From the sequence record PZ357121.2: 64,000 bases of DNA. The stretch is one strand, 5' to 3'. This stretch comes from a phage. Below the pieces are notes generated by a model, which searched no databases, was not told the origin of the DNA, and worked only from the letters and a program-made list of their open reading frames with translations. Shown here piece after piece: positions 314 through 61,730 of the stretch. The number at the start of each line of letters is the position of its first letter. The first letter of the stretch is position 1. Position numbers and translations under genes: made by a program.

Positions 314-557
314 TATAAGCATCCTCGATGCAGGCTTCAGCCATTTTCAGAAGAGAACCAGGAGTATCACCGTCCATTACATTGAAACTGAATTCCACAG
401 CCCAGTCTGTACAGACACGAACTGCTTTAACTTCACCGTCTTCAACTCGTAATGGTTCAATCCAGTATTTCACTGTGTTCTCGAATCCGTCGTCGTCAAT
501 AACGTCTATTTCAACTTCAAGCCCGAGCCCAGCATTGTTAAATTCATCTAAAGTCAT
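297..557 (-). CDS. hypothetical small acidic protein (between 47 and 46)
   Basis: ORF track 86 aa; ATG overlaps gene 47 stop (ATGA coupling). Confidence 0.5.
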   Translation of the reverse strand: MTLDEFNNAGLGLEVEIDVIDDDGFENTVKYWIEPLRVEDGEVKAVRVCTDWAVEFSFNVMDGDTPGSLLKMAEACIEDAYNDYED

Positions 558-1573
558 TGTGTTGCCTCAATATAAAGTTCGTTGGAATATTTGACCAGCG
601 CTTCTCTGTCTTCGTCTGAGATATCTGGAATCGCGTCAATATATTCTTTAATGATATCTTGAAGTGATTTAATCTCGATTTCCTGGTCGTCATCAGATTC
701 AACACTGTTATCAACTTTAGAAACCATACGAAGAGAGTGAACTACTTTTTCAAGTTCAGATTCAAACTTAGTCAAATCTGAATCAATTTCTGATACTATA
801 ACACGTACGGCTAGATTAGTATAATCAGAATAATTGATTTTGCCTTTAAACGGATAAGTGATTCGTCGATGCCATGTTGTTTCATTAGGAATAAATTCCA
901 TACGTTCGACATCAGTGTCAAATACCCAGAATCCGCGCGGGTCGTTCTCATCACCTGCAGTAAGAGTCCATGGTGTCCCAATATATTTGACGTTAGCAGC
1001 TTCAGAGATTGTGTGGAAGTGGCCGGACCAGACTTGTTTATAGGTCTTTAAGAAATCAGGTTCAAGCCCATGAGACTTCATTCCTTTATAGAAATAAAAG
1101 CCGTTCAGTTCCCAGTGACCAACACAATATGCAGCAGAAGAAGTCTTGATGTGCTCTAAGATTTCACCTGTATTTTCTTCACACATCCATGGAACGATAT
1201 CAATCAGGCATCCGTCAAAATCTACAGTAGTTGGATGTTCGTAAATAGTAAAGTTTTCAAATTGAGTTAACAATTCAGAAACAGTGTTAGGTGTTATTGT
1301 ATTCTTAAACGCCATGTCATGGTTTCCTATCGTGACATGAACGTGAATGCCTGCTTTAGAAATCATATCAACGATTTCACGATTGAATTCCATTGTACGA
1401 TGTGTTATTGCTTTACGGACGTCAAACCAATCACCGTACTGAATCCAAGTTTTAATCCCGTGTTTCTTAGAGTATTCAATTGCTTGTCGAATACCATCAC
1501 GTTGAATATCTTGAACCCATGGGTCGTCTTGTTTGACTCCGATATGGAAGTCGCCTAAGTGCAAAATTTTCAT
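554..1573 (-). CDS. 47: recombination endonuclease subunit gp47 (Mre11/SbcD-like phosphoesterase)
   Basis: 339 aa; calcineurin-like phosphoesterase motifs LHLGDFH, GDWFD, GNHD, GHWE; GAGGAAA Shine-Dalgarno before ATG at 1573; same length as T4 gp47. Confidence 0.9.
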   Translation of the reverse strand: MKILHLGDFHIGVKQDDPWVQDIQRDGIRQAIEYSKKHGIKTWIQYGDWFDVRKAITHRTMEFNREIVDMISKAGIHVHVTIGNHDMAFKNTITPNTVSELLTQFENFTIYEHPTTVDFDGCLIDIVPWMCEENTGEILEHIKTSSAAYCVGHWELNGFYFYKGMKSHGLEPDFLKTYKQVWSGHFHTISEAANVKYIGTPWTLTAGDENDPRGFWVFDTDVERMEFIPNETTWHRRITYPFKGKINYSDYTNLAVRVIVSEIDSDLTKFESELEKVVHSLRMVSKVDNSVESDDDQEIEIKSLQDIIKEYIDAIPDISDEDREALVKYSNELYIEATQ

Positions 1574-1596
1574 ATTATTTCCTCATTAGTTAATTC

Positions 1597-1624
1597 ATTC
1601 TATCATCCGTTTATAAAGCAAAAA
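1597..1624 (-). promoter_or_regulatory. T4-type middle promoter (MotA box TTTTGCTTTA plus -10 TAGAAT) upstream of gene 47
   Basis: minus strand reads TTTTTTGCTTTATAAACGGATGATAGAATGAATTAACTAATGAGGAAATAATATG; MotA box consensus (a/t)3TGCTT(t/c)A with TAnnnT 11 nt downstream. Confidence 0.55.
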
Positions 1625-1643
1625 AGGAACTCCGAAGAGTTCC
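1619..1643 (-). terminator. rho-independent terminator hairpin (GGAACTC-TTCG-GAGTTCC then T-run) for minus-strand transcription
   Basis: plus strand aaaaaggaactccgaagagttcc; on minus strand a 7-bp stem with tetraloop followed by TTTTTT; overlaps stop of upstream small ORF. Confidence 0.6.
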
Positions 1644-1816
1644 TATCCACATAGTACACCGTACAGAGGCTCATTTGAACTTTTAAATCGAATGGGCTTG
1701 TACGTAATAGTTCCTTCGGCTTTAGCTTTATCATAAGACTCTTTAAAACGTCTCATTCTTTCTGCTTTGCCTTTACGGATTTTATCAAAATTTTCAGAAG
1801 TCGGGATGTTCGTCAT
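1643..1816 (-). CDS. hypothetical 57-aa basic protein (below ORF-track size cutoff)
   Basis: hand translation MTNIPTSENFDKIRKGKAERMRRF...; ATG at 1814-1816 with GAGAGGTG upstream. Confidence 0.35.
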   Translation of the reverse strand: MTNIPTSENFDKIRKGKAERMRRFKESYDKAKAEGTITYKPIRFKSSNEPLYGVLCG

Positions 1817-1855
1817 GCATAAGCACCTCTCAGAAAATGCCTAAATCGATTTCTC

Positions 1856-2062
1856 TCATCGTTTCCACCATTTCTTAACTTGAAATGAATCAACCCACAC
1901 GAGTTGTTTTGGATCTGCCTTTACAATAGGCGGACAAATTTCTGTAATAGAACCGTCGTGATATTCCTTTTCGGAAATTTTAACACAAAGAGGACCACCC
2001 AATTTAACGGTGAACCCTGCGTTCAGCTTCAGACGTTTAAACTTTGTTTGAACTAGCGCCAT
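1856..2062 (-). CDS. hypothetical protein
   Basis: ORF track 1856..2077 begins at TTG; first ATG at 2060-2062 gives 68 aa. Confidence 0.4.
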   Translation of the reverse strand: MALVQTKFKRLKLNAGFTVKLGGPLCVKISEKEYHDGSITEICPPIVKADPKQLVWVDSFQVKKWWKR

Positions 2063-2360
2063 TAATGATGTCCTCAATAGCCTGACGAGTAGTAACCCAC
2101 TGGATTTTAATTAACTTGTCATTATACGGTTGTCGTAGAATATCCCGAGATTTCTTAATAGCATATTCGTAAGCTTCGAAGTTGTTTTGAATTGCTGCTT
2201 CTTGAGCATGTGCATAAAGACGGTTTAGTTCAAAACGATTCTTTTTAAGAATCTTTTCGGATTTTTTACGTGCTTCAGCTTCATTTTTCTTTTGGATTTC
2301 TTGTAGCATTTTAGCTACTGCATCTTCTGCTTCTTTATTTTCAATAATCTCGGTAGTCAT
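2037..2360 (-). CDS. hypothetical coiled-coil protein
   Basis: ORF track 107 aa, charged helical composition. Confidence 0.5.
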   Translation of the reverse strand: MTTEIIENKEAEDAVAKMLQEIQKKNEAEARKKSEKILKKNRFELNRLYAHAQEAAIQNNFEAYEYAIKKSRDILRQPYNDKLIKIQWVTTRQAIEDIINGASSNKV

Positions 2361-2361
2361 A

Positions 2362-2571
2362 TTATCTCATTAAATTAAAATAAAAACGTCCATCCTCTTC
2401 AATACAGAACTCATACTCAACTGGAGTCCCATTTATTGAAAATGACACGTCATGTGGGTTCAAAGGGTCGATGTCAAAATTAATTTTAAATTCACGACCC
2501 AACAGTTTTACCAAATAAGGGATTGCTTCGTCAAAAGGTTCTTCTAAGTAGTTAGAGATGTCAATTGTCAT
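2362..2571 (-). CDS. hypothetical protein
   Basis: ORF track 2362..2655 overlaps gene 55 by ~95 nt; internal ATG at 2569-2571 with GAGGA upstream gives 69 aa. Confidence 0.4.
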
Positions 2572-3118
2572 CCTCATATAAAAAATCCAAACTAGGCGAA
2601 TCGCTAACAACTTCCTTCTTTTCAGCCCCAGGAGCTTTATAAGCGGATTCTTCATAATGCGTCATTTTATCGTAGATGTCTTGAATAAACGTTTCATCTA
2701 CCAACGCTACCATATCATCGTCATGACTGTCGTAGACATTATGAACGAAGTAACTATATTTCTTTGCAACTTCCTTACGTTCTTTTTTGATACGTTGGAC
2801 AAAAGCATTAAAACAAGCTCGAGTTATGTATGCATGTGGGTTATTGTACTTAGTTTCGTCGAAATTATGAAGTCCCTTAATAGAGGCTTCAATCCCATCT
2901 GCAATCATCTCCTGCTTCCAAGACTGGGTATATCCTGAAAAGTTGAAACGTTTGGACAGGCCTTCGGCGATAAGCATAATTGCTAAACCGATGGTATCAT
3001 TCTGACGAATAATTTTGTTTGGGTCTTTATTATTTAAGAGCTCCTTTTTCCACTCGATTATAGCGGCGAGAAGCTCTTTATTATTCACATAGTTATTTTT
3101 AGGTTTTTGTTCAGTCAT
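2561..3118 (-). CDS. 55: late-transcription sigma factor gp55
   Basis: 185 aa from ATG at 3116-3118 (ORF track starts at upstream TTG); strong similarity to my recollection of T4 gp55 (NYVNNKELL...[47 protein letters not shown]). Confidence 0.9.
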
Positions 3119-3139
3119 AAGTACCTCTTGGCTCAATTC

Positions 3140-3183
3140 ATAGGTCTATTATATCATAATATTTAGAGACCTATCTTAAAGCA
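3140..3183 (-). promoter_or_regulatory. promoter region upstream of gene 55: MotA-like box, TATAAT, 8-bp inverted repeat ATAGGTCT/AGACCTAT
   Basis: minus strand GCTTTAAGATAGGTCTCTAAATATTATGATATAATAGACCTATG. Confidence 0.45.
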
Positions 3184-3190
3184 CGAGATA

Positions 3191-3460
3191 CTATCGGAGC
3201 AAACAATAAGCCTGAAACACTTTTTCCATTAAACGTTTGAACTCATGGATATCGATATAAAGCTCAGTAAGACCGGCATTATAAAGAAAATCTAAAAAGT
3301 TCTCATGTGTTTCGTTATAGTCGCCTTCGTTTAATTGAGATACATGAGTTTCCCAAAAACCAACACCTTTAACAAATGGAAAATACGTAACTTTCATAAA
3401 GTTGTCGACGTAAAATTCACCCAGCTTTTCTTCAGTTATACTGATTCGAGTTAATTTCAT
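3191..3460 (-). CDS. hypothetical protein
   Basis: ORF track 89 aa. Confidence 0.5.
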   Translation of the reverse strand: MKLTRISITEEKLGEFYVDNFMKVTYFPFVKGVGFWETHVSQLNEGDYNETHENFLDFLYNAGLTELYIDIHEFKRLMEKVFQAYCLLR

Positions 3461-6551: not shown

Positions 6552-7022
6552 TTAATCATGTTTCCACACCCCATCGGTATTTGACCAAAGTCGCTGATTA
6601 TCTGATCCTCGCCACAGCTTTTTAGTCGGAAGATTTTTCTCATACTTCCCATCAATAATAACATCAACATATTTAAGCATTTCTAGTTGTTTAATATCTT
6701 CAAACTTATATCCTGTCCACAACCAAATGCTTTTATTGGGATAAAGATTTTTTACTGTTTGAGCAATGCAATGAATAACATCTCGGTTATCAGGATAGAG
6801 AGGGTCACCTCCGGTTATAGTTAATCCTTCTATATAATCATTATTCAAACATTCAATTAATTGTTCTAGTGTTTCACCAGTGAATGGAACACCATTTCTA
6901 GCATTCCATGTTGATTTATTATAACACCCTTCGCATTTATGCAAACAACCTGTAACGAAAAGAACGACCCTGCATCCAGGACCATTCACAAAATCGCAAG
7001 GATAAAATCTATCATAATTCAT
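6552..7022 (-). CDS. nrdG: anaerobic ribonucleotide reductase activating protein NrdG (radical SAM)
   Basis: 156 aa; CxxxCxxC motif GCLHKCEGC; lies directly downstream of nrdD. Confidence 0.9.
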   Translation of the reverse strand: MNYDRFYPCDFVNGPGCRVVLFVTGCLHKCEGCYNKSTWNARNGVPFTGETLEQLIECLNNDYIEGLTITGGDPLYPDNRDVIHCIAQTVKNLYPNKSIWLWTGYKFEDIKQLEMLKYVDVIIDGKYEKNLPTKKLWRGSDNQRLWSNTDGVWKHD

Positions 7023-8310
7023 TGGTGTTTAACCCTATGCATGATTTCTTTATTTTTACCGAGATTAAATCCGCGTTCGTTCGGATTTCCCAAATAACCA
7101 CATGTTCTTCTTATTGTGTTCATCTTTTTAGGATCAGTTTCTCCACAAACTGAACAAACAAATCCGTTTTCAGTAGGAGTCATTTCATGGGTACTTCCGC
7201 ATGTAAAACATTTATCTACTGGCATATTAACACCAAAATAATCTAAATGTTGTGCAGCATAATCCCATACGGCCTCAAGACCTTTTAGGTTATTTTTCAT
7301 ATCAGGAAGTTCAACATAAGAAATGTGACCGCCGGTCGCTATGAAATGATATGGCGCTTCACGAGAAATCTTTTCAAACGGAGTAATATTTTCTTCTACT
7401 GAAACGTGGAAACTGTTAGTGTACCAGCCTTTATCGGTAACATCCTTTACACTTCCATATTTTTCTGTATCGAGTTTACAGAAGCGATAACAAAGGTTTT
7501 CAGCAGGAGTCGAATATAAACTAAAAGCAAAACCGGTTCTTTCAGTCCACTGCTTAAGATGAGCATTCATTTTAGTTAAAATTTCTTGTCCAATATCACG
7601 ACCGACAAGAATATTCAATTCGTGAATACCAATGTATCCTAAGGACACTGAACTTCTACCGTTTTTAAATAACTCAATTATATCGTCATCAGGTTTAAGA
7701 CGAACCCCGAATGCACCTTCTTGGTAAAGAATAGGAGCAACAGTCGCTTTAACACCCTTTAAAGAACTAATTCTACACATCAAGGCTTCAAAACACAGAT
7801 CCATTCGTTCATTAAACAACTCGATAAATTTCTGTTCATTGAACTGTGTTCCAATATAAGAATCTAATGCGATGCGAGGAAGATTCAGCGTTACAACACC
7901 GAGATTATTACGTCCATCAAGAATTTCATTACCAGTCGAATCTTTCCATACGCTCAAGAAACTACGGCAACCCATTGGAGAAACTGGAACTGAAGAACCG
8001 GTAATAGCTTTATTATTCTTAACCGAAATAATGTCAGGATACATTCTTTTGCTTGCGCATTCTAACGCAAGTTGTTTAATATCATAGTTCGGATCATCTT
8101 TATAAAGATTAACACCTTCTTCAACAAACATAACAAGTTTAGGAAAAATAGGAGTTATTCCATCACGACCAAGACCTTTAATGCGGTTTTTAAGAATTGC
8201 CTTCTGAATAATTCGTTCAGTCCAGTCAATTCCCGTACCAAATGTAATTGTCACAAAAGGCGTTTGTCCATTAGAGCTGAAAAGTGTATTTACTTCATCA
8301 TTATATTCAG
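7019..8310 (-). CDS. nrdD: anaerobic ribonucleotide reductase NrdD, exon 2
   Basis: glycyl radical motif RRTCGYLGNP and zinc ribbon CFTCGS...CSVCGE at C-terminus; exon boundary inferred at about 8310. Confidence 0.85.
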
Positions 8311-9343
8311 CATGAGTCGCAAATTCATGCCCGTTTATATGAAACAACAAAATTTGGATAGTCCATAGATATGCAACGTTCTTTTATAGTGCTAGGATGA
8401 AAATTTAGCGCTTTAGCTGCTTCTATATAAGACGTATACTTAATACCGTCAACAACCACATATTCAGGAACTTTATGAATAGTAGTCTTAATACTCAAAA
8501 CAAGAGGATGAGTTTCGACTTCACTTTCAGTGCAATTTAAATATTCCGCTGCTTTTTTAAAACTTCTAAAAGTTTTATTTTTAAGCTTTATCGATACTTG
8601 TTTTTTACTTTTTCGACTATTGATATTATTTTGCACATGTTCCTTAGATCTTCCGTTTTTAGCATAATATTCAGCTACAGAAGATTTTATATTGTTTTTA
8701 TGAGATTCGGATAACACTTTACCCTTATGAGCATCTCTTAATTTTTGAATATGTTCTTCAGTATCCGGATGCTTATAAAACTTTTTACCGCCTATGGATT
8801 TATTTAAACATTTTTTGCTATAAAAATATTTACGTATGACCTCTTCTTCATGTTTTAATGCATCTTTATAACTATCAAATGTTTTTAAAATTATCCATTT
8901 AGTAGGTGTATCAGTTTTTAAGCGTTCATTTATATACTTAGATGACGTTGTGTAAGTTTTCCAGTTTGTGGGCTTGTTTTTAATTGTTCTAAATTTTTTA
9001 TAACCGATATAAATGTCACCATTAGAAAACTTAACTAAGTATGTAAATGCGTCTTTATCTTTTATTTTAGTACAACGTCTTTTTATCCATTTCATTGTTT
9101 CACCTCGTATTCATAAGATAATCTTATTTATACAAGATGACTGCTGCATGTCGCCATGCAGATTAGACTATATCTTCATCTTTCGATGCCGGCCGTTTCG
9201 AATAGCATTAGCTTCTATTCTACACCGCTACATTCATCACGGTTAGTCGTTAGGCATTTAGTTCAAAAGAACATTTAGCACGGGATTGTCTACTAGAGAG
9301 GTTCCCCGTTTAGACCGGTTTTACATGAGCCTGAATTAAATTA
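8311..9343 (-). mobile_element. group I self-splicing intron in nrdD (sunY-type), about 1033 nt, carrying a homing endonuclease ORF
   Basis: nrdD reading frame is interrupted; exon 1 ends ...TATGAGT followed by TAATTTAATTCAGG; conserved group I core GGTCTAAACGGGGAACCTCTCTAGTAGACAATCCCGTGCTAAAT at about 9255-9300; ORF sits 3' of the core; boundaries +/- a few nt. Confidence 0.8.
8325..9095 (-). CDS. I-TevII: intron-encoded GIY-YIG homing endonuclease, I-TevII-like
   Basis: 256 aa; N-terminal FTYLVKFSNGDIYIGYKK; NUMOD3-like repeats; C-terminal helix-turn-helix-like tail; GAGGTG before ATG at 9095. Confidence 0.75.
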   Translation of the reverse strand: MKWIKRRCTKIKDKDAFTYLVKFSNGDIYIGYKKFRTIKNKPTNWKTYTTSSKYINERLKTDTPTKWIILKTFDSYKDALKHEEEVIRKYFYSKKCLNKSIGGKKFYKHPDTEEHIQKLRDAHKGKVLSESHKNNIKSSVAEYYAKNGRSKEHVQNNINSRKSKKQVSIKLKNKTFRSFKKAAEYLNCTESEVETHPLVLSIKTTIHKVPEYVVVDGIKYTSYIEAAKALNFHPSTIKERCISMDYPNFVVSYKRA

Positions 9344-9881
9344 ACTCATACGCCTGGAATGCATCGTATACGTCTTTTTCTGTTTTAGATTGGGCATAAT
9401 TCAACGCATCAGCGATTTGCCATTTTTCTGCATCCTCAATATGTTTTGCATAGGTGCGTTTAACATAAGGAGAAAGAACTTTATCGACATTCGCAAATGT
9501 AGTTCCACCATACTGATGCGAAGCAACTTGTGCAGTAATTTGTGCCATAATTGCAGTAGCAACACCAATAGATTTAGGCGTTTCAATTTGAGCATTGCCG
9601 AGCTTAAATCCGTTTTCAAGCATTCCTTTTAAATCTACTAAACAGCAATTAGTAAAAGGCAATGATATACTGTAATCTAAATCATGAAAATGAATTAATC
9701 CAACATTATGGGCATTTACAATATGACTTGGAAGAATACGACAAGCGATATGTTTAGAAACAATACCGGCCATTAAATCTCTTTTTGTTGGAAAGACGCG
9801 AGAATCTTTGTTGGCGTTTTCTGTATTTAATTCTTTATCTTTATTTGAAATAAAATTTAAAACATCTTTTTCTAAAGACAT
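9344..9881 (-). CDS. nrdD: anaerobic ribonucleotide reductase NrdD, exon 1
   Basis: N-terminal 179 codons of NrdD (…NENANKDSRVFPTKRDLMAGIVSKH…FTNCCLVDLKGMLENGFKLGNAQIETPKSIGVATAIMAQ…); frame runs into intron stop at 9336. Confidence 0.85.
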
Positions 9882-36419: not shown

Positions 36420-36605
36420 GTTTTTTCTGTATTGGTAGTTGATAGTTGTATAGTACCACGGAAGAACAGGGATGTAAACAGTTTTGTGAAAAAAAGTTTT
36501 TGTGGAATTCTAGGGCAGGGAGAGGAAATTAAAAAGTAGGATAATATATTATAAAGGGTATAAACTAAATGATGTGCCTAGAGAGGTCCAGAAAGGCCTA
36601 GATAC

Positions 36606-37296: not shown

Positions 37297-37372
37297 TGGT
37301 GCCTCTAGAAAGATTTGAACTCTCACCATTAACCTTAGAACGATTATATGCTATCCATTACACTATAGAGGC
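37297..37372 (-). tRNA. tRNA-Arg (anticodon UCU), CCA encoded
   Basis: hand-folded cloverleaf: acceptor GCCTCTA/TAGAGGC, D-arm GTGT-AATGGATA-GCAT, anticodon stem TAATC/GGTTA with loop GTTCTAA, T-arm GAGAG-TTCAAAT-CTTTC, then ACCA. Confidence 0.8.
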
Positions 37373-38023
37373 AATTAAATTATTTACAATATCTTCTTTA
37401 TAAACTTCAGCATAATGAAGTTCATATATTTCCCATCCTAATGATTTTATAATATCATGGCGTTCTTTATAATAAGGGGCCAAAATCTTTTTCTTAGGAT
37501 TGGAGTAATGTTGGTTTCCATTAACTTCAATAATAATCTTTTTATCTATTAAAGCAATATCCGTGCAATACGCTCGGTTTTTAACCGGTTGGTATTCTTC
37601 AATAAATGAAATTCCGTTTTCTATTAATTTAGATTTCAAAAATTCACAAGGCACAGATTTAAATTTTGTATTTTTCTTCCAAGGATGTTTATCAGGGTTT
37701 TCATTCAACCATTTTTTCCGAGCATTAGATATTTTTATTCTAGATTCCTCAGAGTGTTCTCTACCTAATGAAGCGGCTGACAATTTTTGTCTAGTCTCTT
37801 CCGAAATTACTACAGGGACACCAGTCTTTTTAGATACAACATACTGGTTTAAATTACCTGAAGCTATACGTGCTTTATTCATTGCTGCAATGGCTGATTT
37901 AGAACTTTCTTTATACAATTCCAATTTAGGGTTGGATTTACACCATCTAGTGTGGTTAGCCATCCATCCTTTAGGTTTATTAGAAATATCAAATTCCATA
38001 TTACAATGTTTACAAATGCTCAT
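37358..38023 (-). CDS. putative free-standing endonuclease: N-terminal zinc finger, NUMOD3-like linker, C-terminal Vsr/DUF559-like (PD-(D/E)xK) domain
   Basis: 221 aa from ATG at 38023 (AGGAGA upstream); CKHCN...HTRWC; SEETRQKLSAASLGREHSEESRIKISNARKKW; IEVNGNQHY...ERHDIIKSLGWEIYELHY; last 5 codons overlap the 5' end of tRNA-Arg. Confidence 0.5.
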   Translation of the reverse strand: MSICKHCNMEFDISNKPKGWMANHTRWCKSNPKLELYKESSKSAIAAMNKARIASGNLNQYVVSKKTGVPVVISEETRQKLSAASLGREHSEESRIKISNARKKWLNENPDKHPWKKNTKFKSVPCEFLKSKLIENGISFIEEYQPVKNRAYCTDIALIDKKIIIEVNGNQHYSNPKKKILAPYYKERHDIIKSLGWEIYELHYAEVYKEDIVNNLIASIV

Positions 38024-38097
38024 TACCAATTATCTCCTATAAAATATAGGAGTATTTATTATTTGGATAGAGCACTTAATTTACTTCGTTTAAATTA

Positions 38098-38169
38098 CTG
38101 GCGCACTTGGACTCGAACCAAGATAAAGGAGTTAACAGCTCCCCGTAATAACCTTTATACGATGCACCA
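38098..38169 (-). tRNA. tRNA-Asn (anticodon GUU), CCA not encoded
   Basis: hand-folded: acceptor TGGTGCA/TGCGCCA (one G-U), D-loop with GG, anticodon stem GGGAG/CTCCT with loop CTGTTAA, T-arm CTTGG-TTCGAGT-CCAAG; D-stem has one mismatch. Confidence 0.6.
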
Positions 38170-38175
38170 TTTGTT

Positions 38176-38250
38176 TGGTGACCCTGGCTGGTTTCGATCC
38201 AGCTACCTATCAGTTATGAGCTGACAGCTCTCCCATTGAGCTACAGGGCC
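38176..38250 (-). tRNA. tRNA with CAU anticodon (Met, or Ile if lysidine-modified), CCA encoded
   Basis: hand-folded: acceptor GGCCCTG/CAGGGTC, D-arm GCTC-AATGGGA-GAGC, anticodon stem GTCAG/CTGAT with loop CTCATAA, T-stem GCTGG/CCAGC with atypical loop ATCGAAA, then ACCA. Confidence 0.7.
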
Positions 38251-38849: not shown

Positions 38850-39140
38850 TCACCGTACCATATTAATGTAATTATATTCAATGCAACATAATTTCAAAGG
38901 ATTCTTGAAAATATCATATTCAAGAGGACCTTTTTCTGTTTCAATAAAGAAATCAAAGTTCACACTATTAAATTTGCGGTCTTCCCAAAGTAATTTAACC
39001 TGTGAAGATGAACGGTCGACGTAAACCTTTTCAACTTCAAAACATGTTAAAATGCCATAATCATCAATCAAGGCTTTAGCTGCTTCTTGATCATATTTAT
39101 ATCCATTTTCAATGGATGATACTTTCGCATAAAGAATCAT
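38850..39140 (-). CDS. hypothetical protein
   Basis: ORF track 96 aa. Confidence 0.5.
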   Translation of the reverse strand: MILYAKVSSIENGYKYDQEAAKALIDDYGILTCFEVEKVYVDRSSSQVKLLWEDRKFNSVNFDFFIETEKGPLEYDIFKNPLKLCCIEYNYINMVR

Positions 39141-39142
39141 TA

Positions 39143-39526
39143 TTAACCTTTATCAACAATAGTATGTGTATGGGCATTTACGATTTGCCACCAGTCAAAA
39201 CTATCGCCAAATCGTTTTGATTTATTGTCTTCAATAATTTGGCGTAATTCATCTTCAGTAGCGGCTTTCGCGATTAAATCAGCATATCCACCACGAGGAT
39301 AATAATTATCACCTGCAAAAAGTAAAAAGTTTGGTTTAATATTATTAAACTCTTCAAGAGTAATAACTTTTCCTGTCGGTTGAACAATCTCTACATATTT
39401 ATATCCTAATTTTTGAGCAGCATCTACTGCTTCAAGCAAAGTATCATGAGCCCATCCAATTTGACAACCTGGCTTTTCAGATGGATTAGCCTGATAATCC
39501 GCGTACACTTTATACATTCTATTCAC
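39143..39526 (-). CDS. hypothetical protein
   Basis: ORF track 127 aa. Confidence 0.5.
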   Translation of the reverse strand: MNRMYKVYADYQANPSEKPGCQIGWAHDTLLEAVDAAQKLGYKYVEIVQPTGKVITLEEFNNIKPNFLLFAGDNYYPRGGYADLIAKAATEDELRQIIEDNKSKRFGDSFDWWQIVNAHTHTIVDKG

Positions 39527-39725
39527 CTTTAGAAATTTTATCCATAACGATAGCGATTAAGCCGATTAGAAATGCTACTACCAATGAGATAGAATTTTCG
39601 GTTGTTGTCAGTAGTCCGCAAATGAATCCTACAAACATCGAAAAACTAAAAGCCATTGAAGCAATTACTACAGCAACATTACGAATCAGTTCAGCGCGTT
39701 TCATTTTATTTCTCCATTTACTCAT
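39519..39725 (-). CDS. hypothetical small membrane protein
   Basis: ORF track 68 aa; two hydrophobic segments. Confidence 0.5.
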   Translation of the reverse strand: MSKWRNKMKRAELIRNVAVVIASMAFSFSMFVGFICGLLTTTENSISLVVAFLIGLIAIVMDKISKGE

Positions 39726-39732
39726 TTGTTTT

Positions 39733-39771
39733 GATAGGACTACTATAACATAGTCCTATCATCATGTAAAC
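39733..39771 (-). promoter_or_regulatory. hairpin-embedded early promoter, family A copy
   Basis: plus strand gataggactactataacatagtcctatcatcatgtaaac. Confidence 0.6.
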
Positions 39772-39773
39772 TA

Positions 39774-40037
39774 TTAAATACCAGCTTCGCGTTTAACATA
39801 ATCGACGTAAGCTTGGATAGCTTTCTTGCTGGTAATTTTTACCTGACCACGACCATTGCCTTCTTTAGAGTTTTTCTTAACAACTACATTACCATCTTTA
39901 ACACCCCATACATGGACGTAAGTACCGATGTTTCGGTCGTAGAACATTGCATGGTCGTTGTTGTAAGAGAATGATTCGTAGTTCTCTGTCAGAGTAGAAG
40001 ATTGAGATTCGGCGATAAATTCTTTATAGGTTTTCAT
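39774..40037 (-). CDS. internal head protein (IPI-like) with leader MKTYKEFIAES
   Basis: 87 aa; capsid-targeting leader; located next to 57B as ipI is in T4. Confidence 0.6.
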   Translation of the reverse strand: MKTYKEFIAESQSSTLTENYESFSYNNDHAMFYDRNIGTYVHVWGVKDGNVVVKKNSKEGNGRGQVKITSKKAIQAYVDYVKREAGI

Positions 40038-40062
40038 TTTATTTCCTTGAGGCTGTTTATTT

Positions 40063-40101
40063 GATAGGATGATAGTAACACACCATCATCCTTATGTAAA
40101 C
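40063..40101 (-). promoter_or_regulatory. hairpin-embedded early promoter, family A architecture with different arms (GGATGAT/ATCATCC)
   Basis: plus strand gataggatgatagtaacacaccatcatccttatgtaaac. Confidence 0.5.
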
Positions 40102-40114
40102 TGTTTTGTGAAAA

Positions 40115-40800
<686 letters not shown>

Positions 40801-40804
40801 TTTA

Positions 40805-41539
40805 TTACCTTAAGATTGTTTCAATTTTAGAATAAAGCTCTTCTAAAGAGCCGTCGTTTGTAATAACTAAATCGCCTTCTTCAATAGGCAACCCAGCTTC
40901 TGTAATATGTTTATCAGTGGATTCCGTACCAGAGCGAACCACATGAATAACTGTAGCACCCATCGCTCTAGCGGTTTCCATTTCATGGACTTGGCGTGTA
41001 TCGGTTACAACATAGTAATCGAAATCACTTCCAATATAATCCATATAGTTTAATGCAAAAAGTTTAACCCAATACATACGGTCAAATAAATTAACGACAA
41101 CATCCGTACCGAGGGCTTGCATAAGACGGCGGATTGACCATGTGTCGTTGATATTATTTATAGCTTCACGCAGGGCTTCATATGGTTTAATATCTAGATA
41201 TGAATACCCACCTTCTAATGATGATAATACTTTAACATTATTAATTGGTAAATATTGACTTTGTAAATAAATTAGCGCTTCTTCCAATAATTCAATAACA
41301 TCCAACTTATTGAGATTTAATGGTGTTTCACGGTCGTATCCAACACCTTCGAAGTATTCATATTTCAACTCAGTGAATACATCAGGATTTTCAGCATGCC
41401 TACGTCCCCAGGCTATTGCTAGAGCGTCTTTAATCGGATATGCCAATTGGTATTTTACGGATTTAAAGTTTGAATTGATGTAATCGGCAGTAGTGTCTTT
41501 ACCACTACGTTTGATGCCGCTTAAAAAGATTAGCTCCAT
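40805..41539 (-). CDS. 1: deoxynucleoside monophosphate kinase gp1
   Basis: 244 aa; P-loop GIKRSGKDT; T4-like gene order 57A-1-3-2-4. Confidence 0.85.
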   Translation of the reverse strand: MELIFLSGIKRSGKDTTADYINSNFKSVKYQLAYPIKDALAIAWGRRHAENPDVFTELKYEYFEGVGYDRETPLNLNKLDVIELLEEALIYLQSQYLPINNVKVLSSLEGGYSYLDIKPYEALREAINNINDTWSIRRLMQALGTDVVVNLFDRMYWVKLFALNYMDYIGSDFDYYVVTDTRQVHEMETARAMGATVIHVVRSGTESTDKHITEAGLPIEEGDLVITNDGSLEELYSKIETILR

Positions 41540-42279: not shown

Positions 42280-43101
42280 TTAAGATTTCCAAACAGTATT
42301 CGCAGAGAAACGTTTTCCTTTTGACATAAACTGCTGAGTAGGTAACATGATTATGTTAGCCCAGTCTTTAGGAGCTATTTCTGTTATTGTTCCTCTAATG
42401 TGGCCTGGCAGGTATGCTTTAATCATTTTGTCAGCACCTTGAAATCCTTTCACCTTGCTCCAGTCTATCTTAAACTTTGTGTTATTAGTAATAGTAGTTG
42501 TGCTAGCATATTGCTTCAGCAATTCTTCAAGAAACTGTTGTCGTGCTTTAGGTGGGATATAGTGCAAGTTTAACCCATACATCAAATTATGTTTACCTAA
42601 TCCTAAATAAATAATCAAAGGATATCGGTCCCAGTATGGCAAAGTATCTTTATGTTTAGCATCATACACGTAAGTATAAATTTTGCCTGGCGTAGGCTTG
42701 ACTACTTTATGACCTTTTACACTTTTCTTAATTGTTTCAACAAACCACTTAGATGATTTGTTGTTTACTGCTGCGCCTTCATTTCTAATCTTTTCTCGTA
42801 TTGAACTGCGAAACGAGTTTATCATCAGAAGTTGACGTTCTTGCTTATTGAGTTTATTTTTAGGTTTAGATTCAAGCGTTTCAATTTTCTGTGCAGTCTT
42901 AATAGATGATGCATATCTAGACATTGCAGATGTAAACGACGAGTATTTTATTCCTTTTGATTCTGCAAATGCTTTTGCAGTGATTCCTTTCTCTTTAGCT
43001 TTCTTGTATTCTAATCCTATCTCAATCCATTTTCTTTCATTCATAGACTGAGCAATCTTAGTGGCTTGTACGCCTTCAGATATAATTTGGAATATGCTCA
43101 T
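42280..43101 (-). CDS. 2: DNA end protector protein gp2
   Basis: 273 aa; position and length match T4 gp2; start overlaps stop of upstream endonuclease gene (ATGA). Confidence 0.75.
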
Positions 43102-43748
43102 TCAACTTTCCTCATTTTACAATTATCACCATGCCAACGTTTATAAGGCGCAGGTTTACATTCTATACCGCAGTATTGGCATATCTTATTATGAGTATTT
43201 AAGTATCCTAATCTCATGTTTTCCTTTTCTTCAGGAGTTCTATTTCGTCCTGTAAGAGTATTTTTTATTTTGTCTCTAATCTCTTTGGGCATTATCCTGC
43301 CTCGGCCTGCTTTACCTATTTTAGCTTTATGCTCTTCGGATAATTTCTTACCCTTCTTAGCTAAACTCATTTTCTTTTTAGATTCTTCGGAAATAGGACC
43401 TAATTTTCTACCTCTGGATGAATCGCCTATTCTTTTTCGCACATCAATAGAACGGCCTCGTCCTCCCTTTCCTCCTAGGTCTATATTATATGTATCTTCT
43501 CTATCCACAAAAGATTGATCAACTAATTCTGCTTCCTTTTGGAAAGCCATTTCTTCATTTAGTAATTCGTCACCGGTATCATACACATATAATACTTCTT
43601 TTACAAAATTATCTAATCCGTATTTAGCATGGGCTTTTAAGATAATTTTACCTGTTCCTTTATAAGAATCATCCGGATTATTAGTTTTATGAACACCTAT
43701 ATAAATTTTATTATTTACGATGTTAGTTATTTTATATACAGTATACAT
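43098..43748 (-). CDS. free-standing GIY-YIG homing endonuclease (Seg-like) between genes 4 and 2
   Basis: 216 aa; canonical GIY-YIG N-terminus [21 protein letters not shown]; NUMOD3 repeats; C-terminal zinc finger CQYCGIECK...HGDNCK. Confidence 0.75.
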
Positions 43749-47455: not shown

Positions 47456-47963
47456 TATACTTCCTTTAAATACCGACTTAGGAGAAGACATGGAAGGGGC
47501 GTCTATTGACGTCCTTTTTACTCCACAGTTAGAAACAACCGAAACTTTAGTGTCAATAAATATAACAGATTATGAACCGACACAAGGCATTACGGTAGAT
47601 GGTAATCGTTTATATGGAACATATGAAAGTGTGTTTAGTTTTTCTTCGGATGCATTGAAATACCGATTAAATGATGATTTTGAAACTGCATCTTCATGGG
47701 ATGATTTACCAAAAGATGAATCCACACAGTTATATTTGTGGAGAGCTCCTCAGAATCTTCGTAAAGTGTTTAGTTATACGGTTGAAATGATTTATAACTA
47801 CCAAGAAGAAAGTTCATCAGGCGATTCTAGAAGTGCCTCTGGTACAGAACCTCCACCGGCTCCAGTACAAAAAACTCTTACTAAGGTTTATACAAAAACT
47901 ATAGTAGGAAATTGGAGCAAATGGGCTCAACAATTACGAAACTATGTTTATGTGAGGCCGTGA
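47448..47963 (+). CDS. 5.1: gp5.1-like protein
   Basis: 171 aa; position between gene 5 and the PAAR protein. Confidence 0.55.
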
Positions 47964-47965
47964 AA

Positions 47966-48259
47966 ATGTCTGGTTTAAGTTACGACAAGTGCGTTACAAC
48001 AGGTCATGAAGCATGGCCTCCTACTGTAATAAATGCTTCCCAATCTAAAGTATTCACCGGCGGTATTCCTGTTCTTGTGGCAGGAGACCAAATAACACCT
48101 CATACAGAAATTAAAAAACCATACGAGACTCATGGAGGTGTTACTGAACCTCGTACATCTAAAGTATACGTCACCGGTAAAAAGGCCGTTCAAATGGCTG
48201 ACCCAATTTCATGCGGGGATACTGTTTCTCAGGCCTCGTCAAAAGTCTTTATAAAATAG
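47966..48259 (+). CDS. 5.4: PAAR-repeat spike tip protein gp5.4
   Basis: 97 aa from ATG at 47966 ([33 protein letters not shown]...); GAGG Shine-Dalgarno; ORF track start is 18 codons upstream. Confidence 0.85.
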
Positions 48260-48267
48260 GAATTAAA

Positions 48268-50241
48268 ATGGCAAACACTCCTGTAAATTATCAATTAGCC
48301 CGAACAGCGAATGCTATTCCCGAGATTTTTATCGGGGGCACATTTGCCGAAATCAAACAGAATATTATCGAATGGCTTAATGGGCAGAATGAATTTCTTG
48401 ATTATGATTTTGAAGGTTCGCGTTTAAACGTATTGTGTGACCTTTTAGCATATAACACTCTTTACATCCAACAGTTCAGTAATAGTGCAGTGTATGAAAG
48501 TTTTATGCGTACTGCAAACTTGCGTAGTTCTGTTGTACAAGCGGCTCAAGATAACGGATATCTGCCTTCATCTAAATCAGCAGCACAAACAGAAATTATG
48601 CTCACATGTACGGATGCATTAAATAGAAACTATATCACCATTCCACGCGGCACTCGTTTCTTAGCATACGCTAAAGATACTTCTGTTAACCCGTATAACT
48701 TTGTTTCTACTGAAGATGTCATTGTAGTTAAAGACAAAAATAACCAATATTTTCCACGTCTTCGATTAGCTCAAGGACGTATTGTTCGCACTGAATTAAC
48801 ATTTGATAAATTAAAACCTATCATTATTCGTGATAAGAATATTGACCGTAATTTGGTTAAGTTGTATGTTGACGGAGCAGAATGGATTAACTGGACTCGT
48901 AAGTCGATGGTTCACGCTGGTTCTACGTCAACAATCTATTATATGCGTGAAACAGTTGATGGGAACACCGAATTTTATTTTGGTGAAGGCGAAATCTCTA
49001 TTAACACATCAGAAGGTGCGTTAACATCTAACTATATTGGTGGCCTTAAACCTGTTCAGGGTTCTAAAATCGTAATTGAGTATATTTCTACTAATGGTGC
49101 AGATGCTAACGGAGCTGTAGGATTTTCTTATGCTGATACATTAGCTAATATCACGGTAATCGATATTAACGAGAACCCTAGCAATAACCCAGACTTTGTT
49201 GGGGCAGACGGTGGTGGTGACCCTGAAGATATTGAACGTATCCGCGAATTAGGCACAATTAAACGCGAAACTCAACAACGTTGTGTAACCGCTTCCGACT
49301 ATGACACATTCGTCTCTGAGCGGTTTGGTTCTATTATTCAAGCGGTTCAAACATTCACAGATTCATCTAAACCAGGGTACGCATATATTGCTGCTAAGCC
49401 TAAATCTGGATTGTATTTGACTTCTGTCCAACGTGATGATATCAAAAACTATTTGAATGATTATAACTTAGGGACTATTACACCTGTTGTTATTTCGCCT
49501 GATTATTTGTTTATCAAAATGAATATCAAAGTTACATACGCGTTGAATAAACTCCAAGAATCAGAACAATATCTTGAAGGGCAAATTATTAATAAAATTG
49601 ACCGATATTATATTGAAGATGTAGAAATTTTTAACTCATCGTTTGCAAAATCTAAAATGCTAACTTATGTCGATGATGCAGATATTTCTATTATTGGTTC
49701 TTCTGCTACTATTCAAATGGTTCGCGAAGTACAAAACTTCTATAAAACGCCTGAGGCCGGTATTAAATACAATAATCAGATTAAAGATAGATCGATGGAA
49801 TCTAATATATTCTCGTTTGATTCGCACAGACCTAATCCAGAAAATGCAAACGAAACTATTAAATACGGTGTTCGCATAGTATCTTCTGACCGTAATGACC
49901 GTGGCATAGGTCAAGTTATTATTGGTCCATTTGCAGAAGGTGATGTTGTTGAAAACGAAAATATACAACCTTATACAGGTAATGATTTTAATAAACTTAC
50001 TGTTACTGACGGACGAAACAAATACTATTCAATTGGTGAAGTGAATTATCCTGCCGATTCGATTTATTGGAACATTGCTAAAATTGACCTCACTTCAGAC
50101 CGTTTTGAAGTTCAAACAATTGAACTTTATTCCGACCCTGCAGATGATATTATTTTTACAAAGGATGGTTCTTTAATCGTATTCGAAAATGACTTACGTC
50201 CTCAGTACTTAACTATAGATTTGGAGCCTATTTCACAATGA
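48268..50241 (+). CDS. 6: baseplate wedge protein gp6
   Basis: 657 aa from ATG at 48268 (MANTPVNYQLARTANAIPEIFIGGTF). Confidence 0.9.
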   Translation: MANTPVNYQLARTANAIPEIFIGGTFAEIKQNIIEWLNGQNEFLDYDFEGSRLNVLCDLLAYNTLYIQQFSNSAVYESFMRTANLRSSVVQAAQDNGYLPSSKSAAQTEIMLTCTDALNRNYITIPRGTRFLAYAKDTSVNPYNFVSTEDVIVVKDKNNQYFPRLRLAQGRIVRTELTFDKLKPIIIRDKNIDRNLVKLYVDGAEWINWTRKSMVHAGSTSTIYYMRETVDGNTEFYFGEGEISINTSEGALTSNYIGGLKPVQGSKIVIEYISTNGADANGAVGFSYADTLANITVIDINENPSNNPDFVGADGGGDPEDIERIRELGTIKRETQQRCVTASDYDTFVSERFGSIIQAVQTFTDSSKPGYAYIAAKPKSGLYLTSVQRDDIKNYLNDYNLGTITPVVISPDYLFIKMNIKVTYALNKLQESEQYLEGQIINKIDRYYIEDVEIFNSSFAKSKMLTYVDDADISIIGSSATIQMVREVQNFYKTPEAGIKYNNQIKDRSMESNIFSFDSHRPNPENANETIKYGVRIVSSDRNDRGIGQVIIGPFAEGDVVENENIQPYTGNDFNKLTVTDGRNKYYSIGEVNYPADSIYWNIAKIDLTSDRFEVQTIELYSDPADDIIFTKDGSLIVFENDLRPQYLTIDLEPISQ

Positions 50242-53200
50242 CAGTAAAAGCGCCAGCAGTCACAAGTCTCAGAATATCCAAGTTGTCCGCTAACCAAGTT
50301 CAAATACGCTGGGATGACGTTGGTGCTAATTTCTACTATTTCGTAGAAATCGCTGAGACTAAAACAGCGGACGGTGGAATAATTCCCCCTGCCAGCTACA
50401 GATGGATAAATTTAGGATATACTCCTAATAGCAACTGGTTCGAAAATAGCTTAGACCCATTAACTTCTTATATTATTCGTGTATCAACTGCCGCTGAAGG
50501 CTTTGAGAGATCTGATTGGGTATATACCGAAATATTTGAATCATTTCAGACTAACGCGTATACATTTCAACATATGATTGAAATGCAATTGGCTAACACT
50601 TTTATTAGAGAAAAATTTACAAATAACAACATGGCTTATGTCGATTTTAATAACGACACTATAATGGCAGCTCTAATGAATGAATCGTTCCAATTTAGCC
50701 CTGCTTATGCGGATATTTCATCTATTAAAAATTTCATTATTGGCGAAAATGAGTATCATGAAATTCAAGGTTCGATTCAACAGGTGTGTCATGATATAAA
50801 CCGTGTTTATTTGATGGAATCCGAAGGAATTCTTTATTTGTTTGAACGGTATCAGCCTGTGGTTAAAGTCTCTAATGATAAGGGACAAACCTGGAAATCG
50901 GTTAAATTGTTTAATGACCGTGTAGGGTACCCTGTATCAAGAACAGTGTATTACCAGACAGATTACACCACGTATGTTCTTGGGTATGATAAATTATTTT
51001 ACGGCCGTAAATCAACTGACGTTCGTTGGTCTGCTGATGATGTGAGATTTAGTTCTCAAGATATAACATTTGCTAAAATTGGTGACCAGTTAAATTTAGG
51101 ATATGATGTAGAAATATTTGGTAACTATGCATCATTACCTGCTAACGTATCACGTATTGCAGAAGCTATCGTTTGCAATGACGATTATGTATACGTTGCT
51201 GCTCGAGATAAAGTTCGTTTTATTAAAACTAGTAATGCCCCTATTGATTCAGACCCGTTATCTCCGACGTATTCCGAACGTTTGTTTGAACAAGAAACAT
51301 TTAACATCACAGGTAACCCTAAGGCAGTTTGCTATAAAATGGATTCTGTCGGTGGTAAAATATTTGCACTGATTATCGGTGAAGTTGTTAATCTTAATGA
51401 CGACCCGAGGACCACTCCTATTGTCGATTCTGCTGATAAGGGTGTTTATGTTCTAGACCATGATGCTGGCACATTTAAACGTGTGTTTGGTAATACTGAA
51501 GAAGAACGCCGTCGTATTGAACCAGGGTACACCAGTATGTCTACTGATGGTGTTGAGTTATCTATTTCATCTAGTAATTTTAAATTTTTAGAATCGGATA
51601 TTGTTGATGACCCAAAAACACAAATCAAGTACGGTTTAATCGGTGCTGTTAAATATGAGTATCCTCGCGAATGGTTGGCTGATAAACATTATCATATGAT
51701 GGCATTTACTTCAACTGAAGACTCTCAATGGGAATCGTTCACTCCACAACCGATGGAATACTATGCCGAGCCATTCTTTAGTTATTCTAGAAAGTCTGGT
51801 ACTCGTTGTTGGATTAATAACTCAGACAAGGCTGTTGTAATTTATTCTGATTTACTTTACACTAAGGTTATTGAGAATCATCCACTTAGTTCTTCAGACC
51901 GTGAAGTTCATGAATATTGGAAGGACGGTGACTGTACAATAGTGATGCCTAACGTAGATTTCACCGGATTTAAAAAATATGCATCTGGCATGATTTTCTA
52001 TAAAGCATCAGGTGAGATTATTTCTTATTATGACTTTAGTTACCGTGTTAGAGATAATGTTTCTATAATTTGGAAGCCTACTAATATATTCTTAACAGCA
52101 TCGTTACAAAACCAAGAAAAAGATACCACATGGACTCCTGTAGAAGAGACTGGTATCGCGGACCCAGATTTACGACCATTGCTCACTACAATGATGCCAG
52201 AGTCTTATCTTTTAGATAATACAAACTTCGAAGCATTCTGCGAGGCTTATATTCAGTATCTTTCTGACGGTTATGGGACACATTATAACAACCTTTTAAA
52301 TCTTATTAAAAATCAATATCCACGCGAAGAACATGCGTGGGAATATTTATGGTCTGAGATTTATAAACGAAACATTTACTTAAACGCTGAAAAACGCGAT
52401 TTAGTGTCTCGTTTCTTTGAATCAAGAAGTTATGACTTCTATTCAACTAAAGGAACTGAAGCATCATATAAATTCTTGTTTAAAGTGCTTTATAACGAAG
52501 ATGTTGAAATTGAAATTGAATCTAGTTCCGGGACCGAATATGATATCATCATTGAATCTGATTCGTTGACAGAAGATTTGGTCGGACAAACCATATACAC
52601 CGCTACAGGACGTTGTAATGTGACGTATATCGAGAGAAGTTACTCTAAAGGTAAATTACAATGGACCGTAACAATTCACAACCTCTTAGGTCGTTTAATC
52701 CAAGGACAGGAAGTTAAAGCTGAAAGACTCCCTGGTTTTGAAGGTGAAATTGTTCGCGGTATTAAAGGTAAAGAGCTTTCTCAGAACAACATCGATTACA
52801 TAAATCGTGGTAGAGCATACTACGTAATGAAGATTAAATCTAAACTTCCGTCATCTCGTTGGAAATCAGACGTATTACGTTTTGTTCATCCGGTTGGATT
52901 TGGATTTATCGCAATTACCCTTCTCACAATGTTTATTAACACCGGATTAACACTTAAACATGTTGAAACCATTATTAATAAATATAAAAACTATAAGTGG
53001 GATTCTGGATTACCGACTAAATATGCAGACCGAGTGGCTAAATTAGACCCACAAGGAAATGTTGAGTTTGACCCTATTACAGGTAAAGCGATATATGAAA
53101 TAGGCCCTATGGCTGGTCAAGATTATCCATTGCCTGAAGATTATAACGCTGAAAACAATAACTCTGTATTTCAAGGTCAACTTCCATCGGAACGTCGTAA

Positions 53201-54333: not shown

Positions 54334-54340
54334 TTAGGGA

Positions 54341-54362
54341 GCCTTCGGGCTCCCATTTTTGT
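54341..54362 (+). terminator. rho-independent terminator after gene 8 (GGGAGCC-TTCG-GGCTCCC then ATTTTTG)
   Basis: 7-bp GC-rich stem with tetraloop followed by T-run. Confidence 0.65.
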
Positions 54363-54365
54363 ATC

Positions 54366-54373
54366 TATAAATA
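54366..54373 (+). promoter_or_regulatory. T4 late promoter TATAAATA upstream of gene 9
   Basis: exact TATAAATA 33 nt before the gene 9 ATG. Confidence 0.6.
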
Positions 54374-54405
54374 GAATATAATATCGGACAACAAAAGGCA
54401 GAATT

Positions 54406-57083: not shown

Positions 57084-57742
57084 TGACTGTACTTAATACA
57101 AAGGCGGGAGTTATTTCCCGTCATGCTGATTTTTTGAATTACAGAAAAAATCCAGCTCAAATTGATGTTTTAAACAACCAAGCTGTAGGTTCCGTGACTA
57201 TTTCTCAGTTAGCTCGCGGTTTTTATGATGCTAACGTAGAATCTGCAATAAATGATGTCCATAATATGGCACGAGCTGATATTGGTACTGTTGTCACAAA
57301 CACTTCAGGCGTATCGCCTGAAGGTACAGCACAAGTTGATTATTGGACTTTTTCTGGTGATGTTCTCGACGATACTTTGACCACTGGAACGCCAGTCGTT
57401 ATTAACGTATTTGGACTTGCTGTTAAAGCAACAATCGGTATGACTGATAACGAATTAACGGCACAAGTTCGTATAGCTTTACAAGAAGCCATTGCTAATC
57501 AAATCGCTATTTCTTCTTATAAAGACCATCCGTCTGAAGGTAATAAACTTCAGGTGACATATTTAGATAACCAACGTCATGTGTTGCCAACATATGCTTC
57601 GTTTGGTGTAACAATTTCGCAAGAAATTTTGTCTGAAGCAAAATCCGGATACGGAACATGGAATTTATTGGGTGCCCAAACGGTTACTCTTGATAACCAT
57701 GATACTCCTACCGTTTTCTACCACTTTGTGAGAGCCTCATGA
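57083..57742 (+). CDS. 11: baseplate wedge protein gp11 (short tail fiber attachment)
   Basis: 219 aa from ATG at 57083 ([17 protein letters not shown]); ORF track start is 6 codons upstream. Confidence 0.85.
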
Positions 57743-60770: not shown

Positions 60771-60775
60771 TGAAA

Positions 60776-61729: not shown

Positions 61730-61730
61730 T

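Follow-up and report, generated by a model that had tools for sequence, protein, structure and literature searches.

The interval between genes 47 and 55 in a Mosigvirus genome: T4-type small genes, a hairpin and a MotA-type promoter without an alpha-glucosyltransferase gene

The interval between genes 47 and 55 of phage T4 has the order 47, 47.1, a-gt, mobB, a-gt.2, a-gt.3, a-gt.4, a-gt.5, 55, with the alpha-glucosyltransferase gene a-gt, whose product has a GT-B fold (PDB 1XV5), and the homing endonuclease gene mobB placed next to each other. In T6, where mobB is missing, the order is 47, a-gt, a-gt.2 to a-gt.5, 55. The pair of a-gt and mobB in T4 is flanked on both sides by a module which consists of a hairpin and a Mot box. 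The module downstream of a-gt.2, located just before mobB, reads TAGGAGC-TTCG-GCTCCTA-TAT-TGCTTTA-N12-TAAAAT, and the one downstream of a-gt, located before 47.1 and 47, reads AAGGGC-TTCG-GCCCTT-T-AGCTTTA-N12-TATAAT. Two middle promoters of T4 have been mapped in this region, PmobB (Palpha-gt.1) with its start at 38682 and P47 with its start at 36576, and the MotA box consensus is described as (a/t)(a/t)(a/t)TGCTTtA, with the -10 element spaced by 12+/-1 nucleotides (PMC2988021). Both starts agree in position with the Mot box and the -10 element of the respective module.

The closest described system is RB69 (NC_004928), in which genes 47, a-gt.2, a-gt.3, a-gt.4, a-gt.5 and 55 follow one another at 38972-41536. 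Nolan et al. (2006) predicted in this genome a middle promoter, Pm:40046, at 40007-40046, with a score of 22 that is among the four highest of 32, and a TransTerm terminator at 40044-40061, with a confidence of 100 and the label '47<--a-gt.2'. RB69 was later reported to be devoid of homologs of a-gt, b-gt and ba-gt and to contain arabinose (Thomas et al. 2018, PMC6024577). The a-gt-less layout described below, including its gene order, promoter, terminator and lack of a-gt and b-gt, is already known from these sources. In RB69 the modified base is 5-hydroxycytosine, to which one or more arabinoses are attached by an ether linkage; gp48 has been shown experimentally to make 5-hydroxy-dCMP, and gp46:47 and gp3 are putative arabinosyltransferases (Lee et al. 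2026, PMC13326640). In the Durham Collection study, the DNA of the Mosigvirus NP contained mono- and di-arabinosyl-dC and was cleaved by BrxU, and the earlier hydroxymethyl assignment was called erroneous (PMC13390438). Brig1, a glycosylase specific for alpha-glucosyl-hydroxymethylcytosine (hmC), leaves the phages Bas46 and Bas47 unrestricted (PMC11078745).

The window analysed here is a stretch of 64,000 nucleotides of phage DNA (PZ357121.2). Over 2.9 kb, its slot between genes 47 and 55 matches dozens of Mosigvirus isolates at 98.1-98.7% identity; among them are PECP20, p000y, mar005P1, AlbertHofmann/Bas47 (98.4% across the slot), HX01 and JS09. The window is collinear with PECP20, its closest complete relative, at 94-97% identity over most of its length; it is also mosaic, as the identity to PECP20 is about 81% over 47457-58421 and extra homing-endonuclease ORFs are present. 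No genome identical to the window was found among the database records, and the best IMG/VR contig in a search with gp47 (L011) is 96-97.6% identical. Within the slot, the genes are ordered and spaced as in RB69, the type member, from which they differ by point changes only (95-100% identity at the protein level); elsewhere the window represents a different, mosaic isolate. Both the nucleotide identity and the collinearity with the RB69 group place the window within Mosigvirus. It is therefore very probable that the window comes from a Mosigvirus with the genus-standard order between 47 and 55, and that a-gt is absent because this lineage makes no glucosyl-hydroxymethylcytosine.

The features of the slot are collected in Table 1.

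Table 1. Genes and transcription-related elements between genes 47 and 55, in positions of the window
Feature	Position	Strand	Details
Gene 47 (SbcD-like recombination endonuclease subunit)	554-1573	-	339 aa; Pfam Metallophos
Shine-Dalgarno GAGG of gene 47	1581-1584	-	7 nt before ATG (1573); read from sequence
-10 element TAGAAT	1597-1602	-	pattern match
MotA box TTTTGCTTTA (TTT-TGCTTTA)	1614-1623	-	11 nt upstream of -10; TGCTTTA = 1614-1620
Stem-loop AGGAACUC-UUCG-GAGUUCCU	1625-1644	-	8-bp stem, UUCG loop; terminator scan
a-gt.2 ortholog	1643-1816	-	57 aa; DUF5486; phrog_2140
a-gt.3 ortholog	1856-2062	-	68 aa counted from ATG; phrog_1648
a-gt.4 ortholog	2037-2360	-	107 aa; DUF2654
a-gt.5 ortholog	2362-2577	-	71 aa; second ATG (2571), used in the RB69 annotation, gives 69 aa; DUF5491
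Gene 55 (late sigma factor)	2561-3118	-	185 aa

The first 6 kb of the window have all their genes on the minus strand. The flanking genes are well conserved: gp47 is 75.8% identical to its T4 counterpart over 339 aa (tblastn) and 99.7% identical to that of RB69, while gp55 reaches 90.7% (E 3e-114) and 99.5%, respectively. Between them, only four ORFs are present, and their sizes agree with the 57, 68, 107 and 69 aa given in the original prediction. Judged by their amino acid identity of 47-76%, these ORFs are orthologs of T4 a-gt.2 (75.9% over 54 aa, E 3e-24), a-gt.3 (70.8%, E 1.5e-29), a-gt.4 (57.7%, E 2.5e-32) and a-gt.5 (46.6%, E 1e-14). The a-gt.5 ortholog and the 3′ end of gene 55 share 17 nt, as they do in T4. 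The Pfam scan assigned three of the proteins to families with bit scores above the gathering cut-offs, namely DUF5486 for a-gt.2 (97.3/27), DUF2654 for a-gt.4 (96.6/25) and DUF5491 for a-gt.5 (49.4/27), and returned no family for the a-gt.3 ortholog. All four carry the PHROGs label 'unknown function', and a search of the PDB with them returned no relative at E<=0.1. In the full-text literature on a-gt.2 to a-gt.5, the sole mention found was the conservation of a-gt.4, which was present in 5/5 genomes studied (PMC1524935). In line with it, a-gt.4 is the gene of the slot with the widest conservation, as it was also found in the distant T4-like loci L016-L020. An Rfam scan of the whole window gave three tRNAs only, none of them in the slot.

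The comparison with T4 leaves only 47.1, a-gt and mobB missing, and on the sequence a-gt is replaced by nothing. The original prediction had the small ORFs, the terminator and the promoter occupy the place of a-gt. These elements are indeed present, but the picture of a vacated and refilled slot does not hold, as T4 has the same ORFs beside its a-gt and carries the hairpin-plus-Mot-box module twice, where the window has it once. The intergenic gaps of the slot measure 69 bp (between a-gt.2 and 47) and 39 bp, so there is no space for a gene remnant.

The absence of a-gt between 47 and 55, as originally proposed, was borne out by a tblastn search, in which T4 a-gt, T4 b-gt and T6 ba-gt gave no match to the 64-kb window at E<=1e-3; for T4 a-gt and b-gt, relaxing the threshold to E<=10 returned noise only. 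A gene of a gp42-type dCMP hydroxymethylase is likewise missing from the window. Remote glycosyltransferases were also sought in the ORFs of those window stretches that have no megablast match to PECP20, and none was found. The ORFs there that match Pfam resemble homing endonucleases; the others scanned along with them, three without a Pfam match and the PinA protease-inhibitor gene, gave no glycosyltransferase either. The window covers 64 kb of a genome of roughly 168 kb, phages of the T4 type have mosaic genomes, and the b-gt and ba-gt genes of T4 and T6 are found away from the 47-55 region. It could thus be argued that hmC is still glucosylated in this phage, by a product of a-gt, b-gt or ba-gt encoded outside the window. 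Such an arrangement is very improbable in the light of the relatives. The complete genome of PECP20 has no homolog of any of the three glucosyltransferases and contains the complete arabinose pathway. Its sole relative of T4 gp42 is of the RB69 gp48 type and only 24.8% identical to T4 gp42; since RB69 gp48 is a 5-hydroxy-dCMP synthase, the hmC substrate would be missing as well. Across the phage collection, a-gt was found in 657 records, and among the matches listed those of higher identity belong to Tequatrovirus-type phages and those at roughly 66% to Klebsiella/Raoultella phages, with no named Mosigvirus relative of the window.

A second possibility is that the gap results from a recent deletion, or from an assembly artefact, in this genome alone. 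The two similar hairpin-plus-Mot-box modules that bracket a-gt and mobB in T4 could recombine with each other, which provides a conceivable route for such a deletion. PECP20, mar005P1 and L011, however, have the same junction between a-gt.2 and 47 base for base, and RB69 departs from it at a single position. A 311-bp probe spanning it found the junction uninterrupted in 176 phage records; against Tequatroviruses, the alignment of the same probe breaks at the a-gt insertion. The chance that the gap is private to this genome is therefore negligible.

The reading of the locus as that of an arabinosylating Mosigvirus draws on the modification genes of its relatives. PECP20 contains homologs of RB69 gp3, gp45, gp46:47, gp48, gp50, gp51, gp52:53 and gp55 at 96-99% amino acid identity; among these, gp51, gp52:53 and gp55 belong to the synthesis of the arabinose nucleotide. 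L011 carries genes of an arabinose-5-phosphate isomerase and a sugar nucleotidyltransferase/kinase just past gene 43. A homolog of the arabinose-pathway dNMP kinase is located within the window itself, at 40805-41539. According to the proposed scheme, a thymidylate-synthase homolog produces 5-hydroxy-dCMP in these close relatives, and two putative arabinosyltransferases then put arabinose on the DNA. The latter are encoded at two loci outside the window, in the interval from uvsX to gene 43 and in that from rIIA to gene 39, and would represent the functional counterparts of T4 a-gt in Mosigvirus, encoded away from the 47-55 slot. With the modification loci located beyond the window, the expectation that this phage carries the same set comes from its relatives. 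Homologs of RB69 gp3 were found in 212 records, 156 of which have at least 95% identity and are all Escherichia or Shigella phages, the relatives of the window included; the remaining 56 fall below 60%, and the matches listed in that band are Acinetobacter phages.

These data modify the idea that the missing a-gt points to a different scheme of hydroxymethylcytosine glycosylation. A non-glucose modification is indeed found in the close relatives, but the modified base in RB69 and NP is 5-hydroxycytosine, ether-linked to one or two arabinoses, and not hydroxymethylcytosine. The expected change in the sensitivity to restriction has the right direction, as the relatives escape Brig1 and are sensitive to BrxU, although it is not novel, being established for the genus. 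The modification group affects which defence systems can restrict a phage: Mosigvirus relatives evade Brig1, while BrxU, of the GmrSD family, still cuts their DNA. The absence of a-gt can therefore serve as a quick marker which assigns a T4-type phage to the arabinosyl-5-hydroxycytosine group rather than to the glucosyl-hmC group, and may be of use in annotation and in the choice of phages for therapy. Since all this is already established for RB69 and its relatives, the window brings no new biology in this respect.

The 69-bp gap between a-gt.2 and gene 47 contains both predicted transcription signals. On the minus strand it reads TAG-GAACTC-TTCG-GAGTTCC-TTTTTT-GCTTTA-TAAACGGATGA-TAGAAT-...-GAGG-AAATAAT-ATG. 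The hairpin folds with dG of -13.9 kcal/mol. Folded within 50 nt of sequence it has a z-score of -2.8, and within 38 nt one of -4.4; 0/200 shuffled sequences fold equally well. It is followed by a run of 6 T at 1620-1625, which is then interrupted. A stable hairpin containing G+C and followed by a U-tract is the composition of an intrinsic terminator, and the terminator predicted in RB69 at 40044-40061 maps onto positions 1626-1643 of the window (offset 38,418). The stop codon of a-gt.2 lies inside the 5′ arm of the hairpin, likewise in T4. The structure is thus likely to be an intrinsic terminator and/or an RNA-stabilising element closing the transcript of a-gt.5 to a-gt.2, with termination in vivo as the presumed outcome. 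The matching hairpins of VR7, T4, T6 and Mineola have stem sequences different from that of the window. Six hairpins, from the window, VR7, T4 and Mineola, were folded, and all are stable; stability maintained in spite of the different stems argues that selection acts on the structure itself.

The MotA box matches the T4 consensus exactly. The spacer between the box and TAGAAT, which is 11 nt long, stays inside the range of 12+/-1 but at its short end. The two sequence hallmarks of MotA-dependent promoters, a box centred near -30 and a -10 element of the form TAnnnT, are both found here. Across the window, 6 matches to TGCTTTA-N11-13-TANNNT were counted where 1.05 would be expected, and 0/100 shuffles reach 6. 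Within 1500-3300, the box at 1614-1623 is the sole Mot-like site on the coding strand, and a homolog of the internal T4 promoter Palpha-gt.4, sought in the window, is not conserved. The promoter Pm:40046 of RB69 maps onto positions 1589-1628 (offset 38,418). The single base by which the RB69 intergenic region differs lies in the -10 element, TAAAAT in RB69 versus TAGAAT in the window; the other Mosigviruses compared agree with the window. The MotA box is conserved in the Gaprivervirus VR7 as well, and the mapped T4 promoters PmobB and P47 are its homologs. The first T of TGCTTTA is at the same time the last T of the T-run behind the hairpin. Both the terminator with the MotA-type promoter and their overlap, which the original prediction had read from the letters, could thus be confirmed as sequence elements by the terminator scan, the fold and the exact consensus match, the Mot box starting within the T-run. 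PECP20 encodes MotA (Pfam MotA_activ 2.4e-39, MotCF 2.2e-8) and AsiA (6.7e-33), and the promoter of gene 47 would presumably be MotA-dependent in vivo. The genes motA and asiA are located outside the window, and RB69 has a motA ortholog.

Taken as a unit, the two signals would divide the region into two transcripts. The operon of 55, a-gt.5, a-gt.4, a-gt.3 and a-gt.2 would end at the UUCG hairpin, and the middle promoter fused to it, predicted to depend on MotA/AsiA, would restart transcription into 47 and 46. Such a fusion corresponds to the PmSL (promoter-middle stem-loop), the Mot-box variant of the PeSL cassettes, which are found at the boundaries of indels in the genomes of T4-like phages (Arbiol 2010; Comeau 2014, PMC4122927). 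The PmSL was described in the Vibrio phage nt-1, and the window shares with it the stem-loop directly 5′ of the promoter, the ribosome-binding site and the start codon. In the window, the stem-loop, the promoter with its Mot box, the ribosome-binding site and the ATG are placed exactly at the indel formed by a-gt, mobB and 47.1 in the comparison with T4. The layout of hairpin, Mot box, -10 element and ribosome-binding site is the same as at PmobB and P47 of T4, while the stems are different; in the alignment, the promoter of the window matches both T4 modules in the spacer and the -10 region. VR7, which also has no a-gt, carries AGGAAGC-CTAGT-GCTTCCT-TTTTT-TGCTTTA-N12-TAAAAT upstream of its gene 47. 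In the Klebsiella phage Mineola, which has a-gt, hairpin-plus-Mot-box modules flank the gene on both sides. The element may have mediated a recombination event.

The distribution of a-gt at this site gives some indication of the direction of such an event. The gene is present in Tequatrovirus, in the Jiaodavirus Mineola and in a locus that appears to come from an Erwinia phage (L014), and absent in Mosigvirus, in VR7 and in two further loci; the homologous position is thus filled in T4, T6, Mineola and the Erwinia-phage locus and empty in the window and PECP20. One fixed position of a-gt beside stem-loop/Mot-box modules in several genera, missing in others, is a modest comparative addition to what has been described. 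The slot without a-gt could be ancestral; a-gt would then have entered the Tequatrovirus, Jiaodavirus and Erwinia-phage lineages by independent insertions or by lateral spread, and Mosigvirus would never have lost it. The more distant T4-like loci, which hold just a-gt.4 or nothing in the slot, are compatible with this scenario, and so are the two PmSL modules around a-gt in T4 and T6, an architecture proposed for mini-circle integration (PMC4122927). Against it, three lineages carry a-gt at the identical site, between a-gt.2 and 47. From its T4 counterpart, a-gt has diverged (63.7% identity in Mineola, 56% in the Erwinia-phage locus) to a degree similar to that of the flanking gp47 (70% and 66%), as vertical descent predicts. 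The gp47 of T4 is 70.3% identical to that of Mineola and 75.8% to that of the window, which brings T4 nearer to the a-gt-less Mosigvirus than to the a-gt-bearing Mineola. Because both Mineola and the Erwinia-phage locus are more distant from T4 than Mosigvirus is, independent insertions at the same site would cost more events than loss. Ancestral absence is on these grounds a serious possibility, if a somewhat doubtful one, and the identities and positions weakly favour an old presence of a-gt at the site followed by later losses.

If a-gt was indeed present early and lost, the single module upstream of gene 47 might be an excision scar. The a-gt of the Mosigvirus ancestor, bracketed by two modules like that of T4 and T6, would have been removed by recombination between them after the precursor switched from 5-hydroxymethyl-dCMP to 5-hydroxy-dCMP, as this switch would leave a-gt without a substrate. 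This reading is put forward tentatively, as a real but somewhat doubtful possibility.

In T4 (record positions 36576-36590), the start codon of 47.1 is overlapped by the -10 element of the middle promoter P47, and therefore the P47 transcripts cannot encode 47.1. In the Klebsiella phage Mineola, the alpha-glucosyltransferase gene a-gt is annotated with 416 aa, compared with 400 in T4. The annotated start runs through the module of a hairpin and a promoter with the MotA-binding element (Mineola 3430-3460), and it is probably placed too far upstream. The internal middle promoter of T4, Palpha-gt.4 (record 39440-39500), has no counterpart at window positions 2400-2470. Upstream of gene 55, the P55 region (window 3119-3190) differs very little from that of T4.

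Among the genes listed for the RB69 cytosine-modification pathway, the window includes just one, which encodes the dNMP kinase. RB69 gp3 is the putative arabinosyltransferase; its homolog in the Mosigvirus HX01 (NC_018855.1, 103242-104339) is labeled in RefSeq as 'DNA alpha-glucosyltransferase'. Because no similarity of this homolog to T4 a-gt is detectable by tblastn, the name could mislead annotation-based surveys.

Features of the window; PECP20 is the closest complete Mosigvirus relative
Feature	Position	Strand	Remark
nrdD C-terminal part	7019-8350	-	ORF
Homing-endonuclease ORF inside nrdD insertion	8325-9095	-	GIY-YIG/NUMOD1
nrdD N-terminal part	9336-9881	-	ORF
Second homing-endonuclease-like ORF, 273 aa	9872-10693	-	NUMOD3 motif
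tRNA genes Arg-TCT, Asn-GTT, Met-CAT	37297-38250	-	
Mobile-endonuclease-like ORF	37358-38029	-	no megablast match to PECP20
Gene 1 (dNMP kinase)	40805-41539	-	Pfam DNMK
Mobile-endonuclease-like ORF	43098-43748	-	no megablast match to PECP20
Mobile-endonuclease-like ORF	61731-62366	+	no megablast match to PECP20

The three ORFs in stretches unmatched in PECP20 resemble mobile endonucleases. One matches SegE GIY-YIG and NUMOD3 weakly, another carries an I-TevI-type DNA-binding domain, and the remaining one, flanked by tRNA genes, is of the DUF559/RAP type. None of the three is a glycosyltransferase.

The gene for the anaerobic ribonucleotide reductase, nrdD, is split between two ORFs (7019-9881, minus strand). 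The insertion of about 1 kb that separates them bears the GIY-YIG/NUMOD1 ORF and is absent from PECP20. It may be an intron, or nrdD may be genuinely split; Rfam gives no group I intron that passes its gathering threshold. The 273-aa ORF sits between nrdD and gene 49, and PECP20 lacks it as well.

The block of baseplate and tail genes (47457-61735) shares about 81-83% identity with PECP20, compared with 94-97% in the other parts of the window, which points to a mosaic exchange of the structural genes. The window contains three tRNA genes; two are reported for RB69.
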